Program-made: the position numbers and the translations under genes | DNA from: Escherichia coli | Lineage (GTDB): Bacteria; Pseudomonadota; Gammaproteobacteria; Enterobacterales; Enterobacteriaceae | Assembly (NCBI RefSeq): GCF_009931435.1 | Contig: NZ_CP043414.1 | Direction: 5' to 3' (one strand) | DNA: 64,000 nucleotides | The notes under the pieces: generated by a model | Database searches by the model: none | What the model saw: the letters and a program-made list of their open reading frames with translations, nothing else | Told to the model about the DNA's origin: nothing | Part shown: piece after piece, positions 1 to 31,728 of the stretch | Layout: every line of letters starts with the position of its first letter | Numbering within the stretch: position 1 is the stretch's first letter

Positions 1-332
1 CTCCGCGATTACGTACGGCGATCCAGTTAGCCCGAAATGTATCTTCCGGCACATGCGAGTATGTGATCAACACAACCAAAGGCGGGAAGGTAATAGCCAA
101 GACGCTGAACAACTGGTGGAATCAGGCTAAACGTGCAGCCGAGCAAAAAGCCGGCGTTCCGTTTGGGTGCAACTTCCATGACATAAAAGCCAAAGGGATT
201 TCAGATTACGAAGGCAGCAGTCGCGACAAACAAATTTTCAGTGGACACAAAACAGAAAATCAGGTGTTGATTTACGATCGTAAAACCAAAATAACACCAA
301 CACTGGATTTGCCGCTTGTGGTCAGTAAGTAG
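1..332 (+). CDS. tyrosine recombinase (phage/island integrase), C-terminal part; 5' end lies beyond the window edge
   Basis: Reading frame is open from position 3 to the stop at 330-332. The tail ...FHDIKAKGISDY...GHKTENQVLIYDRKTK resembles the C-terminal catalytic region of tyrosine recombinases. It sits next to a tRNA fragment. Confidence 0.6.
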   Translation, partial: PRLRTAIQLARNVSSGTCEYVINTTKGGKVIAKTLNNWWNQAKRAAEQKAGVPFGCNFHDIKAKGISDYEGSSRDKQIFSGHKTENQVLIYDRKTKITPTLDLPLVVSK

Positions 333-473
333 GCAATACAGAAAATTTTCTGGCAAAAAGACTTGGTATATTAACTCTGAATAACTCCCTAATATATTGA
401 TTTTTCTTGGTGTCAAGTCTGATTAACTTTTCGGCCATTTTCCGTATTATACTGATTTTTCTTTATTTTTCTT

Positions 474-533
474 CGGTCTTGAAAACCGGCGACCCGAAAG
501 GGTTCCAGAGTTCGAATCTCTGCGCTTCCGCCA
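474..533 (+). other. 3' fragment (about 60 nt) of tRNA-Ser, serT-like: anticodon-loop side through CCA, no 5' half; likely att core copy
   Basis: cGGTCTTGAAAACCGGCGACCCGAAAGGGTTCCAGAGTTCGAATCTCTGCGCTTCCGCCA matches the 3' part of E. coli serT as I recall it. The preceding sequence cannot form the acceptor or D arm. Confidence 0.7.
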
Positions 534-543
534 AATAAGATAA

Positions 544-576
544 GGGGTTAGCTAAATGCTAACCCCTTTTTCTTTT
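544..576 (+). terminator. rho-independent terminator (native serT terminator)
   Basis: Hairpin ggggttagc-taaat-gctaacccc followed by a T-run. Confidence 0.75.
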
Positions 577-739
577 GCCTGTCGAAATTCTCAGGGCGTT
601 ATATTTGCTTAATGACCTGATAATCCGCTGTTAAACCTGTTCCAGATCAAATGCGTAAAGATGGGTAAAACTTCTGGGTACCCTTGCGCATTATTATTAT
701 GCTGCTTAATTAATTACATCTGTCATAGAGAGTGACTCA

Positions 740-1399
740 ATGGATCGTATTGTTAGTTCTTCACATGACCGTACATCGCTGCTTAGCACCCATAAGGTGC
801 TGCGTAATACCTATTTTCTGCTGAGCCTGACGCTGGCCTTTTCGGCGATTACCGCAACTGCCAGTACGGTGCTGATGCTGCCATCTCCGGGTCTGATTCT
901 GACGCTGGTGGGTATGTATGGTTTGATGTTCCTGACCTATAAAACGGCGAATAAGCCGACCGGAATTATCTCCGCATTCGCCTTTACCGGTTTTCTGGGT
1001 TATATCCTCGGACCAATTCTGAATACCTATCTGTCTGCCGGAATGGGTGACGTAATCGCTATGGCACTGGGTGGAACGGCGTTAGTGTTCTTCTGCTGCT
1101 CTGCGTATGTGCTGACCACCCGCAAAGATATGTCGTTCCTTGGCGGTATGCTGATGGCGGGTATTGTGGTGGTGCTGATTGGTATGGTTGCTAATATCTT
1201 CCTGCAGCTGCCTGCCCTGCATCTGGCGATCAGCGCGGTCTTCATTCTGATCTCCTCTGGCGCTATCTTGTTTGAAACCAGCAACATCATTCATGGCGGT
1301 GAAACGAACTATATTCGTGCCACGGTTAGCCTGTATGTTTCGCTGTACAACATCTTCGTCAGCCTGCTGAGCATTCTGGGCTTCGCCAGCCGCGATTAA
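740..1399 (+). CDS. yccA: BAX inhibitor-1 family inner membrane protein, modulator of FtsH
   Basis: 219-aa ORF of hydrophobic multi-TM character; sequence recognised as YccA. Confidence 0.93.
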
Positions 1400-1421
1400 T
1401 CTCACCCGCTAACACTTTCAT

Positions 1422-1452
1422 AGCCTCGCTTTATGCGGGGCTTTGTTTTTTG
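1422..1452 (+). terminator. probable rho-independent terminator after yccA
   Basis: Hairpin agcctcgc-tttat-gcggggct followed by ttgttttttg. Confidence 0.5.
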
Positions 1453-1489
1453 TTACACTGCCGCCAGTCTGATTAAGGTAGTAATAATT

Positions 1490-1819
1490 ATGCTGATCTT
1501 CGAAGGTAAAGAGATAGAAACGGATACCGAAGGCTATCTCAAAGAAAGCAGCCAGTGGAGTGAGCCGCTGGCAGTGGTGATTGCAGAGAACGAAGGGATT
1601 ACTCTGTCACCAGAACACTGGGAAGTGGTGCGTTTTGTGCGTGATTTCTATCTGGAATTCAATACTTCTCCGGCGATTCGTATGCTGGTAAAAGCGATGG
1701 CGAATAAATTTGGCGAAGAAAAAGGTAACAGCCGCTATTTATACCGACTGTTTCCGAAAGGTCCGGCTAAGCAAGCCACCAAAATTGCTGGCCTGCCAAA
1801 ACCGGTAAAATGTATTTAA
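1490..1819 (+). CDS. tusE: sulfurtransferase TusE (2-thiouridine synthesis)
   Basis: 109 aa from the ATG at 1490 ([12 protein letters not shown]...), with an aaggtag RBS. The ORF track's 1433 start is an upstream extension. Confidence 0.9.
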
Positions 1820-2094
1820 TGGATACGAAAATCGGTTAATTCCCCCGAGGGATGATGCGGCTCGCTGAGCACCCGTTCTACACGCGCAGAACGCGGGCCG
1901 CCACTCTTTAACCACTGCATTAATTTTTCTACCTGCCCTTCTTCACCGCAGGCAACCACTTCCACGCTGCCATCGTCAAGATTTTTGGCGTACCCGGCTA
2001 ATCCCAGCTTTTTCGCTTCATACTGCGTGGTATAGCGAAATCCAACGCCCTGAACTCGCCCGTAAACCCAGGCAATTATGCAGACTTTCGACAT
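1816..2094 (-). CDS. yccX: acylphosphatase
   Basis: 92 aa from the internal Met ([21 protein letters not shown]...), an acylphosphatase signature. The 163-aa track ORF is a 5' extension. Confidence 0.88.
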
Positions 2095-2188
2095 TGCTGC
2101 TCTCCTTATCCTTAATGGACGCGTTGCAAATCCATGGAAAACTCCGGACAATGACGCCCATTTCTTTGCATCGACAGAAAAGTAAATT

Positions 2189-3379
2189 ATGAGTGTACGT
2201 TTAGTGTTAGCCAAAGGGCGCGAAAAATCATTACTTCGTCGCCATCCGTGGGTCTTTTCCGGGGCCGTTGCCCGCATGGAAGGTAAAGCCAACCTCGGTG
2301 AAACCATCGATATTGTTGATCATCAGGGAAAATGGTTAGCACGCGGCGCTTATTCGCCAGCTTCGCAAATCCGGGCGCGCGTCTGGACGTTTGACCCGAA
2401 TGAATCTATCGACATTGCTTTTTTTACCCGCCGTTTGCAACAAGCACAAAAATGGCGTGACTGGCTGGCGCAAAAAGATGGCCTCGACAGTTATCGTTTA
2501 ATCGCCGGTGAATCTGATGGCCTGCCGGGAATTACTATCGATCGTTTCGGTAATTTTCTGGTGCTGCAGCTGCTAAGCGCTGGCGCGGAATACCAGCGTG
2601 CGGCATTAATTAGTGCCCTGCAAACGCTCTACCCGGAATGTGCAATTTACGATCGCAGCGACGTTGCGGTACGTAAAAAAGAAGGGATGGAACTGACCCA
2701 GGGCCCCGTTACCGGAGAGCTACCGCCTGCCCTGCTGCCGATTGAAGAACACGGCATGAAGCTGCTGGTGGACATACAGCACGGGCACAAAACGGGCTAC
2801 TACCTGGACCAGCGTGACAGCCGCCTGGCTACCCGCCGCTACGTTGAAAATAAACGCGTACTTAACTGTTTCTCCTATACCGGTGGTTTCGCCGTATCGG
2901 CATTGATGGGCGGTTGTAGCCAGGTTGTCAGCGTTGATACCTCCCAGGAAGCGCTGGATATTGCACGGCAGAATGTTGAGCTGAACAAACTGGATCTGAG
3001 CAAGGCTGAGTTTGTCCGTGATGATGTCTTTAAATTGCTGCGTACTTATCGCGATCGCGGTGAAAAATTTGACGTTATCGTGATGGACCCACCGAAGTTT
3101 GTTGAGAATAAAAGCCAGTTGATGGGCGCGTGTCGTGGCTATAAAGACATCAACATGCTGGCGATTCAGTTGCTGAATGAAGGCGGAGTTCTCCTGACTT
3201 TCTCCTGTTCCGGTCTGATGACCAGCGATTTATTTCAGAAAATCATCGCGGATGCCGCAATTGATGCCGGTCGTGATGTACAATTTATAGAGCAGTTCCG
3301 TCAGGCAGCCGATCATCCGGTGATCGCTACCTACCCGGAAGGGCTATATCTGAAAGGGTTTGCCTGTCGCGTCATGTAA
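2189..3379 (+). CDS. rlmI: 23S rRNA m5C1962 methyltransferase
   Basis: 396-aa ORF with PUA and SAM-methyltransferase character; recognised as RlmI (YccW). Confidence 0.92.
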
Positions 3380-24326: not shown

Positions 24327-24423
24327 ATCGTCACTTTTACTCTAAGAAAATTGTTGCGCATTATAGCTAATAAGCGCGTCATGTCATAAAGTTGAGGGCT
24401 TATTTTCATTTGAGGACCGCACC

Positions 24424-27256: not shown

Positions 27257-27492
27257 GAACTCTCCTGGATTCCCGGTGTGCAAACCGGGGGCGTATTATG
27301 TGCGAGTTCGGACCAAAAGGGAATTGACCTACGGCAATAAATAGCAAACGTTTTCTTATTGCGCTTTTTTTATGCTTTTTTTGGCTTTGCTTCGTCAGAT
27401 AAATCATTTCGACTCGCGGACGCCCTCTGTCAGACTGACCAAATTGTTATCAATTTTAACAAAACAAGAACAATTGGTTATAAGGAGAGAGT

Positions 27493-28068
27493 ATGCGTGT
27501 CATCACCCTGGCGGGGAGTCCTCGCTTTCCTTCTCGCTCCAGCTCCTTGCTGGAATATGCGCGGGAAAAACTGAATGGCCTGGATGTAGAGGTTTATCAC
27601 TGGAATCTGCAAAACTTCGCCCCGGAAGATCTGCTTTATGCTCGTTTCGATAGTCCGGCACTCAAGACCTTCACCGAACAGCTGCAACAGGCTGATGGAC
27701 TGATAGTCGCTACACCTGTGTATAAAGCCGCCTATTCCGGTGCGCTGAAAACCCTGCTCGACCTGCTGCCAGAGCGCGCTTTGCAAGGCAAAGTGGTGCT
27801 GCCGCTGGCGACGGGCGGCACGGTGGCTCACCTTTTGGCGGTCGATTACGCCCTTAAACCGGTTTTAAGCGCACTGAAAGCCCAGGAGATCCTGCACGGC
27901 GTGTATGCCGATGACTCACAGGTGATTGATTACCACCACAAACCCCAATTCACGCCAAATCTGCAAACCCGTCTTGATACCGCGCTAGAAACTTTCTGGC
28001 AGGCACTTCACCGCCGTGATGTTCAGGTTCCTGACCTTCTGTCTCTGCGAGGTAATGCCCATGCGTAA
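27493..28068 (+). CDS. ssuE: NADPH-dependent FMN reductase
   Basis: 191-aa ORF with an aaggag RBS; first gene of ssuEADCB. Confidence 0.93.
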   Translation: MRVITLAGSPRFPSRSSSLLEYAREKLNGLDVEVYHWNLQNFAPEDLLYARFDSPALKTFTEQLQQADGLIVATPVYKAAYSGALKTLLDLLPERALQGKVVLPLATGGTVAHLLAVDYALKPVLSALKAQEILHGVYADDSQVIDYHHKPQFTPNLQTRLDTALETFWQALHRRDVQVPDLLSLRGNAHA

Positions 28069-29020
28069 GATCATTAAACTGGCGCTGGCGGGATTGCTTA
28101 GCGTCTCTACACTCGCGATTGCCGCAGAGTCGTCTCCAGATGCGTTACGTATTGGCTATCAGAAAGGCAGTATTGGTATGGTGCTGGCAAAAAGCCACCA
28201 ATTATTGGAAAAACGCTATCCGCAAACAAAAATCTCGTGGGTGGAGTTCCCCGCTGGCCCACAGATGCTGGAGGCGTTAAACGTTGGCAGTATCGATCTC
28301 GGCAGTACCGGGGATATTCCACCAATCTTTGCCCAGGCTGCCGGGGCTGATTTGGTGTACGTGGGCGTCGAGCCGCCGAAGCCCAAAGCCGAAGTGATTC
28401 TGGTGGCAGATAACAGTCCGATCAAAACCGTAGCCGATCTTAAAGGTCACAAAGTTGCCTTTCAGAAAGGTTCCAGCTCGCACAATCTTTTACTACGCGC
28501 ACTACGCCAGGCCGGGCTTAAATTCACGGATATCCAGCCCACTTACCTGACGCCTGCCGATGCCCGCGCCGCGTTCCAGCAAGGTAACGTCGACGCATGG
28601 GCTATCTGGGATCCCTACTACTCCGCTGCGTTATTACAGGGCGGCGTGCGGGTGCTGAAAGACGGCACCGATCTTAATCAAACCGGCTCGTTTTACCTGG
28701 CAGCTCGTCCCTATGCAGAAAAAAACGGCGCATTTATTCAGGGTGTACTGGCAACCTTTAGTGAGGCCGATGCGTTAACCCGCAGCCAGCGCGAGCAAAG
28801 CATCGCTTTACTGGCAAAAACGATGGGCTTACCAACGCCGGTGATTGCCTCTTATTTAGATCATCGCCCCCCTACCACCATCAAACCGGTTAACGCCGAG
28901 GTTGCCGCCTTACAGCAGCAAACGGCAGATCTGTTTTATGAAAACCGTCTGGTACCGAAAAAAGTCGATATCCGCCAGCGCATCTGGCAGCCCACTCAAC
29001 TGGAAGGAAAACAATTATGA
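28061..29020 (+). CDS. ssuA: aliphatic sulfonate ABC transporter periplasmic binding protein
   Basis: 319 aa from [15 protein letters not shown]... with a signal peptide; 8-nt overlap with ssuE. Confidence 0.92.
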
Positions 29021-30162
29021 GTCTGTATATGTTCTGGTTTTTACCGACCCACGGAGACGGACATTACCTGGGAACGGAAGAAGGTTCACGCCCGGTTGAT
29101 CACGGTTATCTGCAACAAATTGCGCAAGCGGCGGATCGTCTGGGCTATACCGGTGTGCTAATTCCCACAGGGCGCTCGTGTGAAGATGCGTGGCTGGTGG
29201 CAGCGTCGATGATCCCTGTGACGCAACGGTTGAAGTTTCTTGTTGCCCTGCGCCCCAGCGTAACCTCACCTACCGTTGCTGCCCGCCAGGCCGCCACGCT
29301 GGATCGTCTCTCTAACGGACGCGCGTTGTTTAATCTGGTCACAGGCAGCGATCCGCAAGAGCTGGCAGGCGACGGCGTATTCCTCGATCATTGCGAGCGT
29401 TACGAAGCCTCGTCTGAATTTACACAGGTCTGGCGGCGCTTATTGCAGGGCGAAACCGTCGATTTTAACGGTAAACATATACATGTACGCGGAGCAAAAC
29501 TGCTCTTCCCGCCAATTCAACAGCCCTATCCTCCGCTTTACTTTGGCGGCTCGTCAGACGTCGCCCAGGATCTGGCCGCTGAACAGGTTGATCTCTACCT
29601 CACCTGGGGCGAACCACCGGAGCTGGTAAAAGAGAAGATCGCGCAAGTGCGGGCGAAAGCTGCCGCGCATGGACGCAAAATTCGTTTCGGTATTCGTCTG
29701 CATGTGATTGTTCGTGAAACTAACGACGAAGCGTGGCAGGCCGCCGAGCGGTTAATCTCGCATCTTGATGATGAGACCATCGCCAAAGCACAAGCCGCGT
29801 TTGCCCGCACCGATTCCGTGGGGCAACAGCGAATGGCGGCGCTACATAACGGCAAGCGCGACAATCTGGAAATCAGCCCCAATTTATGGGCGGGCGTTGG
29901 CTTAGTGCGCGGCGGTGCCGGGACGGCGTTGGTGGGCGATGGTCCGACGGTCGCCGCGCGAATCAACGAATACGCTGCGCTTGGCATCGACAGCTTTGTG
30001 CTTTCTGGTTATCCGCATCTGGAAGAAGCGTATCGGGTCGGCGAGTTGTTGTTCCCACATCTGGATATTGCCATTCCGGAAATTCCCCAGCCACAACCGC
30101 TGAATCCGCAAGGCGAAGCGGTGGCGAATGATTTTATCCCCCGTAACGTCGCGCAAAGCTAA
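29017..30162 (+). CDS. ssuD: FMNH2-dependent alkanesulfonate monooxygenase
   Basis: 381-aa ORF; 4-nt overlap with ssuA. Confidence 0.94.
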
Positions 30163-30172
30163 GGAAGAAATA

Positions 30173-30964
30173 ATGGCAACGCCAGTGAAGAAGTGGTTAT
30201 TGCGCGTTGCCCCCTGGTTTTTACCGGTGGGCATCGTGGCGGTGTGGCAACTGGCCTCCTCGGTTGGCTGGCTGTCGACGCGTATTTTGCCCTCTCCGGA
30301 AGGGGTGGTAATGGCGTTCTGGTCGCTCTCAGCCAGCGGCGAATTGTGGCAGCATCTGGCGATCAGCTCCTGGCGGGCGTTGATTGGTTTTTCAATTGGC
30401 GGATCGCTGGGGTTGATTCTGGGACTGATAAGCGGACTGTCGCGCTGGGGAGAAAGGCTGCTGGATACCTCAATTCAGATGTTGCGCAACGTGCCGCATC
30501 TGGCGCTGATCCCGCTGGTGATTTTGTGGTTTGGTATTGATGAATCCGCAAAAATCTTTCTGGTGGCGCTCGGCACGCTATTCCCCATTTATATCAACAC
30601 CTGGCACGGCATCCGTAATATCGATCGCGGTCTGGTGGAAATGGCGCGTAGCTATGGATTATCCGGCATACCGCTGTTTATCCATGTGATCCTGCCTGGT
30701 GCCCTGCCCTCAATTATGGTCGGCGTACGTTTTGCGTTGGGCCTGATGTGGCTGACGCTGATTGTTGCCGAAACCATTTCTGCCAATTCCGGCATTGGTT
30801 ATCTGGCGATGAATGCGCGGGAGTTTTTGCAAACGGATGTGGTGGTAGTCGCCATTATTCTCTACGCCCTGCTCGGCAAACTTGCTGACGTCAGCGCGCA
30901 GCTGTTAGAGCACCTCTGGCTGCGCTGGAATCCGGCTTATCATTTGAAGGAGGCCACGGTATGA
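30173..30964 (+). CDS. ssuC: aliphatic sulfonate ABC transporter permease
   Basis: 263 aa from [15 protein letters not shown]..., with an aaggaag RBS. Confidence 0.92.
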
Positions 30965-31728
30965 ATACTGCTCGTCTGAACCAGGGCACACCCTTGTTAC
31001 TCAATGCAGTAAGCAAACATTACGCAGAAAATATCGTTCTGAACCAACTGGATTTACATATTCCGGCAGGTCAGTTTGTGGCGGTGGTGGGCCGCAGCGG
31101 TGGTGGCAAAAGTACCCTGCTGCGCCTGCTGGCAGGTCTGGAAACGCCAACCGCAGGCGATGTGTTAGCGGGTACCACGCCGCTAGCTGAGATTCAGGAA
31201 GACACGCGAATGATGTTTCAGGATGCGCGTCTGCTACCGTGGAAATCGGTGATTGATAACGTTGGGCTGGGCCTTAAAGGCCAGTGGCGCGATGCCGCGC
31301 GTCGGGCGCTGGCTGCGGTAGGGCTGGAGAATCGCGCGCGGGAATGGCCTGCCGCACTTTCTGGCGGGCAGAAACAGCGTGTGGCGCTGGCAAGAGCGTT
31401 GATTCATCGACCGGGTTTATTATTGCTTGATGAACCGCTCGGGGCGCTGGACGCCCTGACTCGGCTCGAGATGCAGGATTTGATTGTGTCACTTTGGCAG
31501 GAGCACGGCTTTACCGTACTGTTGGTGACGCATGATGTGAGCGAAGCGGTAGCAATGGCGGACCGGGTGTTGTTAATTGAAGAGGGAAAAATTGGTCTGG
31601 ATTTGACGGTGGATATCCCCCGTCCGCGCCGGTTAGGGTCGGTGAGATTAGCAGAGCTGGAAGCGGAAGTGTTGCAACGGGTGATGCAGCGTGGGCACTC
31701 TGAACAACCGATTCGGCGTCATGGTTAA
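30961..31728 (+). CDS. ssuB: aliphatic sulfonate ABC transporter ATPase
   Basis: 255-aa ORF with Walker [10 protein letters not shown] and an ABC signature; 4-nt overlap with ssuC. Confidence 0.94.

Follow-up and report, generated by a model that had tools for sequence, protein, structure and literature searches.

Escherichia coli DNA that very probably holds the int-proximal end of a lambdoid prophage in serT

Prophages at serT and integration into tRNA genes

Prophage insertion at serT is an already known, ordinary feature of E. coli that uses a standard mechanism; it has been known since the genome of O157:H7 Sakai, in which the prophage is Sp4. The att layout of phage lambda is P1-H1-P2 ... 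H'-P'1-P'2-P'3. An anticodon-loop class of integration into tRNA genes was reportedly described by Williams in 2002. Anticodon centered attP sites (site A) define the larger class in Islander, class A, with 2,083 of 3,919 islands, and a 3' tDNA fragment was present in 3,760 of the 3,919 (PMC4383910). In a Klebsiella survey (preprint), the attB sites of one integrase group span the region from the anticodon loop to CCA. Sp4 has been located at yccA (PMC10925052), and serT is among the prophage integration sites in STEC lineages, including O165/O172 and O121 STEC, sometimes with tandem prophages (PMC10132054; PMC8767318).

We analyzed 64,000 nt of E. coli DNA from contig NZ_CP043414.1 (this whole stretch is called the window). 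We concluded with high confidence that positions 1-576 are the int-proximal junction of a lambdoid prophage of the Sp4/CP-933M type, site-specifically integrated into serT. In the Sakai genome, the annotation "prophage Sp4, lambda-like phage" starts at the base that matches window position 538, the last base of the att core. The int-fragment-yccA junction was found in 744 of 5,426 complete E. coli genomes (a junction was counted as present at 80% or more of positions 1-740). The features of the region are listed in Table 1.

Table 1. Positions of the prophage-chromosome junction features in the window.
Feature	Position	Strand	Remarks
int 3' end	1..332	+	residues 231-339 of 339; frame open from position 3; TAG stop at 330-332
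Phage-derived att arm beside int	333..473	+	141 nt, AT-rich; K-12 lacks the arm; 136/141 identical to the phage Evi attP arm
Candidate arm-type integrase site ACTTGGTATA	361..370	+	putative
IHF-consensus-like site AATCAATATATTA	390..402	-	putative; between both arm-type candidates
Second, weaker candidate arm-type site TCTTGGTGTC	405..414	+	putative
att core, 65-nt identity block	474..538	+	474-533, displaced serT 3' 60 nt; 534-538, AATAA
Anticodon stem-loop CGGT / CTTGAAA / ACCG	474..488	+	anticodon TGA at 480-482; probable strand-exchange site
Native serT terminator	539..579	+	stem-loop 542-568 and T run; identical in K-12 and the empty-site sister genome
yccA	740..1399	+	first chromosomal gene past the junction; in the ORF list and annotated in W12-1 and K-12

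Integrase, phage arm and tRNA-Ser fragment

Translation of frame 3 (positions 3-332) gave 109 residues without a stop or frameshift before the terminal TAG. All 109 recur unchanged at residues 231-339 of the annotated tyrosine recombinase (339 aa) of E. coli W12-1, and 107 of the 109 are identical to the Sp4 integrase of Sakai (ECs_1055); over the full length, the Sp4 integrase and the integrase of the window's lineage are 97% identical. The full-length integrase matches Pfam PF00589 (Phage_integrase, E = 4.4e-8) and PHROG integrase families. It aligns with lambda Int over residues 1-318 (E = 2e-17), and the alignment includes the arm-binding N-terminus, which pairs with lambda Int residues 1-60. 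The gene upstream of int encodes an 83-aa DUF4224 protein that matches a PHROG excisionase family.

The part of the integrase encoded in the window contains His289 (177-179), Lys292 (186-188), His312 and the catalytic Tyr321. In the alignment with lambda Int, Tyr321 (codon at 273-275) corresponds to the nucleophile Tyr342, and the canonical Arg-His-Arg-Tyr tetrad is absent, the position of lambda R311 being taken by Lys292. The motif around this residue is FHDIKAKG (positions 177-188 encode His289 to Lys292), and its counterpart in lambda Int is FHELRS. Lys292 is invariant in six aligned clade members at 43-97% identity, namely the window's lineage, Sakai Sp4, Citrobacter phage Chris1, BUCT708, Salmonella phage ST64B and coliphage mEp390, which indicates that it is a trait of this integrase clade and not a sign of decay. 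In the ST64B record, the integrase is noted as similar to that of CP-933M, the EDL933 counterpart of Sp4. A related module was seen in the Stenotrophomonas phages BUCT708 and BUCT709 (OM816834.1, 27502-28660; OM816835.1, 14818-15973): a segment of 79-82 nt, ~94-95% identical to the 3' part of E. coli serT plus its terminator, adjoins a DUF4224 gene and an integrase 54% identical to that of the window's lineage. The att module looks enterobacterial, and the phages that carry it are recorded under another host.

The 141-nt arm beside int holds two copies of the motif TTGGT(A/G)T (at 361-370 and 405-414). A degenerate form of the arm motif was found at only four places when both strands of the whole window were scanned, and two of the four are inside the arm. 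IHF-like sites were found by a pattern scan for WATCARNNNNTTR; the one at 390-402 is kept at the same position in phage Evi. Of the 10-mer family of ACTTGGTATA, this arm has one member and the opposite arm has three in tandem, as seen in Evi and in the lysogen junctions. In the int-distal attP arm, the three tandem copies are accompanied by an IHF-like site at the core edge. Repeats of the TTGGTATA type are present in both attP arms as candidate binding sites. We infer the arm-type and IHF sites from such sequence patterns. Promoter-like hexamers on the + strand of the arm (371-398 and 423-450) could in principle transcribe the orphan tRNA fragment; they were given no weight because three sites were found vs. 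2.1 ± 1.5 expected in shuffled sequences.

Past the arm, positions 474-533 are the exact last 60 nt of K-12 serT, the gene for tRNA-Ser(UGA), beginning at base 2 of the anticodon stem and ending with CCA. Because the 60-nt match is exact, a chance origin is impossible. The 5' 28 nt of serT gave no match in the whole 64-kb window with up to three mismatches, and ARAGORN called no tRNA anywhere in it (in intact serT, it places the anticodon at position 35). The hairpin at 542-568 forms 11 pairs followed by a T run in the terminator scan, with a predicted folding energy of -21.6 kcal/mol (z = -5.7). When the whole window was compared by megablast with the K-12 region from cmk to hyaA, the homology started exactly at 474 and was collinear to 64000; the sequence left of 474 was absent from that region. 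The gene order in K-12 is hyaA-serT-yccA. This is the arrangement described in the earlier note, which had read an integrase frame open at the left edge, about 140 nt to a tRNA-Ser 3' part lacking its 5' half, the native serT terminator and then yccA, with hya beyond serT in K-12; the frame, the spacer (333-473), the hairpin and the gene order all bear it out. A search of positions 1-3000 for Rfam families gave only two sub-threshold chance matches at permissive thresholds, one of them between the terminator hairpin and ctRNA_p42d (20 bits vs. a gathering score of 50), so that the region was assigned to no RNA family.

Three differences from K-12 were observed elsewhere in the window. The fimbrial operon elfADCG-ycbUVF (~7.1 kb in K-12) is missing between pyrD and ssuE, at 27355-27431; since 1,352 of 5,426 complete genomes, Nissle 1917 and ATCC 11775 among them, have the same elf-less junction, it is ordinary. 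The adjacent ssuEADCB stretch (27431-31704) is only 94.3% identical to K-12 vs. about 97-97.7% in the flanks; it may have been acquired by recombination long ago or be a divergent allele. Upstream of rlmL, ~140 bp of K-12 sequence is missing at 24342-24347; it may be a REP-type intergenic element.

Near-identical genomes and the four att sites

Position 1 of the window already falls within int, and the content on the left side was read from near-identical genomes rather than from the source genome. These were located among GenBank assemblies by an exact-protein look-up with the RlmI of the window. Over its first 13.4 kb, the window has 99.98-100% identity with three assemblies (GCA_009899175.1, GCA_013900085.1 and GCA_016664965.1). 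Contig VTMS01000003.1 shows 100% identity across 13,379 nt, and leftward it contains the full-length int (339 aa), the DUF4224 excisionase gene and the 3' end of an exonuclease gene; its sequence stops inside this last gene, 1.25 kb beyond the left edge of the window.

The complete genome CP057959.1 differs from the window by three mismatches in 13,379 nt (99.978% identity). ARAGORN detected an intact tRNA-Ser(UGA) gene 426 nt from hyaA in this genome, and the two copies of the 65-nt block are 46,702 bp apart. We mapped the genes of the element inward from both ends, up to a gap of ~9.5 kb (record positions 3120570-3130067). From the serT side, tail genes (L, K, I, J, fibre and fibre assembly) are followed, past the 9.5-kb gap, by portal, large terminase, an IS21-family insertion, holins, endolysin and a DNA methyltransferase. 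Q, RusA, ParDE, replication genes and an immunity region of the ydaS/ydaT-racR type come next, and dicB, exonuclease, the DUF4224 gene and int form the other end. The terminase protein of this prophage is widespread (12,158 index blocks). The IS21-family element (istA/istB) lies between the lysis and terminase genes (L027, 13733-15534); it may affect inducibility, and the prophage may not be inducible. An IS21-family element is present in CM135133.1 at a different insertion point.

Two other genomes also carry an intact serT and a second copy of the block with phage genes between them. The element is 44 kb in W12-1 and 41 kb in E200086, the latter with a contractile-tail module. Both share the int-att module of the window's lineage joined to different structural modules, which is the mosaicism usual for lambdoid phages. 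At the intact-serT junction of E200086 (L005, 8144-8208), a C-to-T change was observed in the variable arm of the serT 3' half supplied by the phage (GACTCGAAAGGG), so that the tRNA-Ser(UGA) made by this lysogen has a G-U pair that sets it apart from the native one.

The sister genome GCA_016664965.1 has two mismatches to the window from 474 on and an empty hyaA-serT-yccA site. K-12 is likewise unoccupied at serT. Since near-identical genomes are either occupied or empty, the lineage of the window is polymorphic for the prophage, and this natural polymorphism is what bears on integration and excision activity. From these relatives, we infer the activity of the element and the leftward content of the window's own genome. 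Over window positions 1-25000, no complete E. coli genome in RefSeq exceeded 98.9% identity; coverage of the lineage in the annotated collection is poor. We regard two readings, taken jointly, as very doubtful: that the unexamined part of the prophage in this poorly sampled lineage might hold unusual cargo, and that the integrase clade with Lys in place of Arg II (Sp4, ST64B, mEp390) might be catalytically non-canonical.

To compare the att sites, we aligned K-12 serT with its flanks (attB), the window, the intact-serT junction of W12-1 and phage Evi (attP). Evi (LR597642.1) provides the free phage genome, in which both inner arms are joined at one core copy. All four sequences share a single 65-nt block, window 474-538. 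On the left side of this block, the window agrees with Evi, and W12-1 with K-12; on its right side, the pairing is exchanged, the window agreeing with K-12, and W12-1 with Evi. Such swapped arm matches are the pattern expected of reciprocal site-specific recombination between attP and attB. The bacterial arms agree fully with the empty-site genome, at 120/120 for the B arm (serT junction of CP057959.1) and 200/200 for the B' arm (window from 539). Compared with Evi, the int-proximal phage (P) arm of the window has 136 of 141 identities and the int-distal (P') arm at the serT junction of CP057959.1 has 59 of 60. In exact-match searches, the block was found in two copies, at the prophage ends, in CP057959.1 and W12-1, and in one copy each in K-12, the empty-site sister genome and Evi. 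The int-distal phage arm contains its own hairpin and T run (-22.8 kcal/mol by RNA folding); a serT rebuilt in front of this arm thus keeps a terminator.

Origin of the junction and comparison with known systems

In the mechanism that we propose, the phage attP holds a 65-nt copy of the serT 3' part, which starts at the anticodon stem and extends 5 nt beyond CCA; behind this copy lies a terminator hairpin of the phage. The lambda-Int-like integrase with its N-terminal arm-binding domain would exchange strands inside this block, probably at the 7-nt anticodon loop (478-484), which has the inverted stem halves on either side. The anticodon loop is the most likely crossover position, given that the block starts at the anticodon stem and by analogy with the Islander classes and the Klebsiella attB sites. 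The 5' part of the bacterial serT would then be joined to the phage 3' copy, giving a complete serT with a phage terminator beside hyaA, off the window on the left. Behind int, the 60 nt from the 3' end of the bacterial gene would be stranded as an orphan together with the native terminator, and this orphan is what the window shows. For excision, the DUF4224 excisionase encoded next to int would be needed along with the integrase, and probably IHF as well. The remainder of the 65-nt block would serve to rebuild the tRNA, which would account for the length of the core. The earlier note had considered a duplicated core of 60 nt to be fairly long; the duplication is real, the block extends over 65 nt, and this length is normal for anticodon-loop elements.

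The most serious alternative is that the window's own genome keeps only a degraded remnant as a fixed scar, consisting of int, the arm and the orphan fragment after deletion of most phage genes. The window has no view of the left side, the 100%-identical contig stops within the exonuclease gene, and defective prophages are common at serT: Sakai Sp4 has IS629 and ISEc8 insertions, and the CP057959.1 prophage has the IS21 insertion. We still consider a remnant improbable, because the same 100%-identical contig has an intact int (339 aa), xis and the 3' end of exo, the genome with three mismatches has a 46.7-kb element in which every phage functional class is present in the parts that were read, and the int part in the window is free of stops and frameshifts and 100% identical to full-length relatives. 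In the near-identical genomes, the arrangements that would have spoken against the proposal of the earlier note are not seen: int does not lie directly beside an intact serT with no second att site, nor is it a short degenerate frame without cargo. The leftward extension that it had called for, when carried out on these genomes, led to an intact serT and the second block at the far end of the CP057959.1 element, past phage genes, and the comparison with known integrases led to W12-1 and Sp4.

Since tRNA genes host genomic islands and integrative conjugative elements as well, a non-phage element at serT might also be considered, a possibility that the earlier note had left open when it spoke of a serT-integrated island. 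Integration into serT is supported by the four att sites, but "island" is too unspecific for the element, which is a lambdoid prophage. Lambdoid phage genes were found beside the int-att module in all six genomes examined (most or all of the element in W12-1, E200086, Sakai, CP057959.1 and Evi; xis and exo only in the 100%-identical contig), the 40-kb phage record Evi has a matching attP, and conjugation genes were seen in none of the genomes examined. The P4-type island pattern consists of a P4-like integrase beside an intact tRNA gene with non-phage cargo or conjugation genes; here a lambda-like integrase of 339 aa is located at the end with the tRNA fragment, and the element has the content of a phage. 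A non-phage island or conjugative element is thus extremely unlikely. Nothing more than the bare presence of a partial tRNA speaks for a pseudogene formed by local duplication or decay and unrelated to the integrase. The break at 474 is the exact end of the K-12 homology and, from the other side, of the Evi homology, and in the empty-site sister genome one intact serT occupies the same spot; the comparison of attB, attP, attL and attR refutes a tRNA pseudogene.

Integration of an Sp4/CP-933M-type prophage, our preferred explanation, accounts for the partial tRNA-Ser upstream of yccA and places the right end of a ~45-kb lambdoid prophage at window position 538. The fragment at 474-533 should not be annotated as a tRNA gene or as an independently arisen pseudogene. 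Beyond correct annotation, the significance of the junction is small.

Among the described elements, Sp4 of Sakai (equivalent to CP-933M of EDL933) occupies the same site between yccA and serT/hyaA in the same orientation, with int beside yccA and the same xis-exo neighbours of int as in the window's lineage. The DNA identity to the window is 92.7% across positions 3-740, and the Sakai core has one mismatch (AGATAA vs. AAATAA). Sp4 carries IS629/ISEc8 insertions and pchA, none of which was seen in the relatives of the window's lineage, and the structural modules vary by strain, as in mosaic phages. Phage Evi, with lambdoid gene content in its 40-kb record, has an Int that is 99.4% identical and an identical 65-nt core. 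Past the core, Evi continues into a phage arm with a terminator-like hairpin and three tandem copies of TTGGTATA, whereas the window continues into the serT terminator and yccA.

With respect to the anticodon-loop integration class, we found no difference: here too, the block starts at the anticodon stem and reaches the 3' end of the gene, with a displaced 3' fragment. Compared with lambda, int is transcribed toward att with xis just upstream in the element of the window's lineage as well. The candidate att layout is also lambda-like, with two putative arm sites flanking an IHF-like site on one side of the core and an IHF-like site plus three tandem putative arm sites on the other. The target here is a tRNA gene with a 65-nt identity block, whereas lambda uses a 15-bp core between gal and bio, and the position of lambda Arg311 is Lys in this integrase. 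The three-site arm is int-distal here, whereas the P' arm of lambda is int-proximal.
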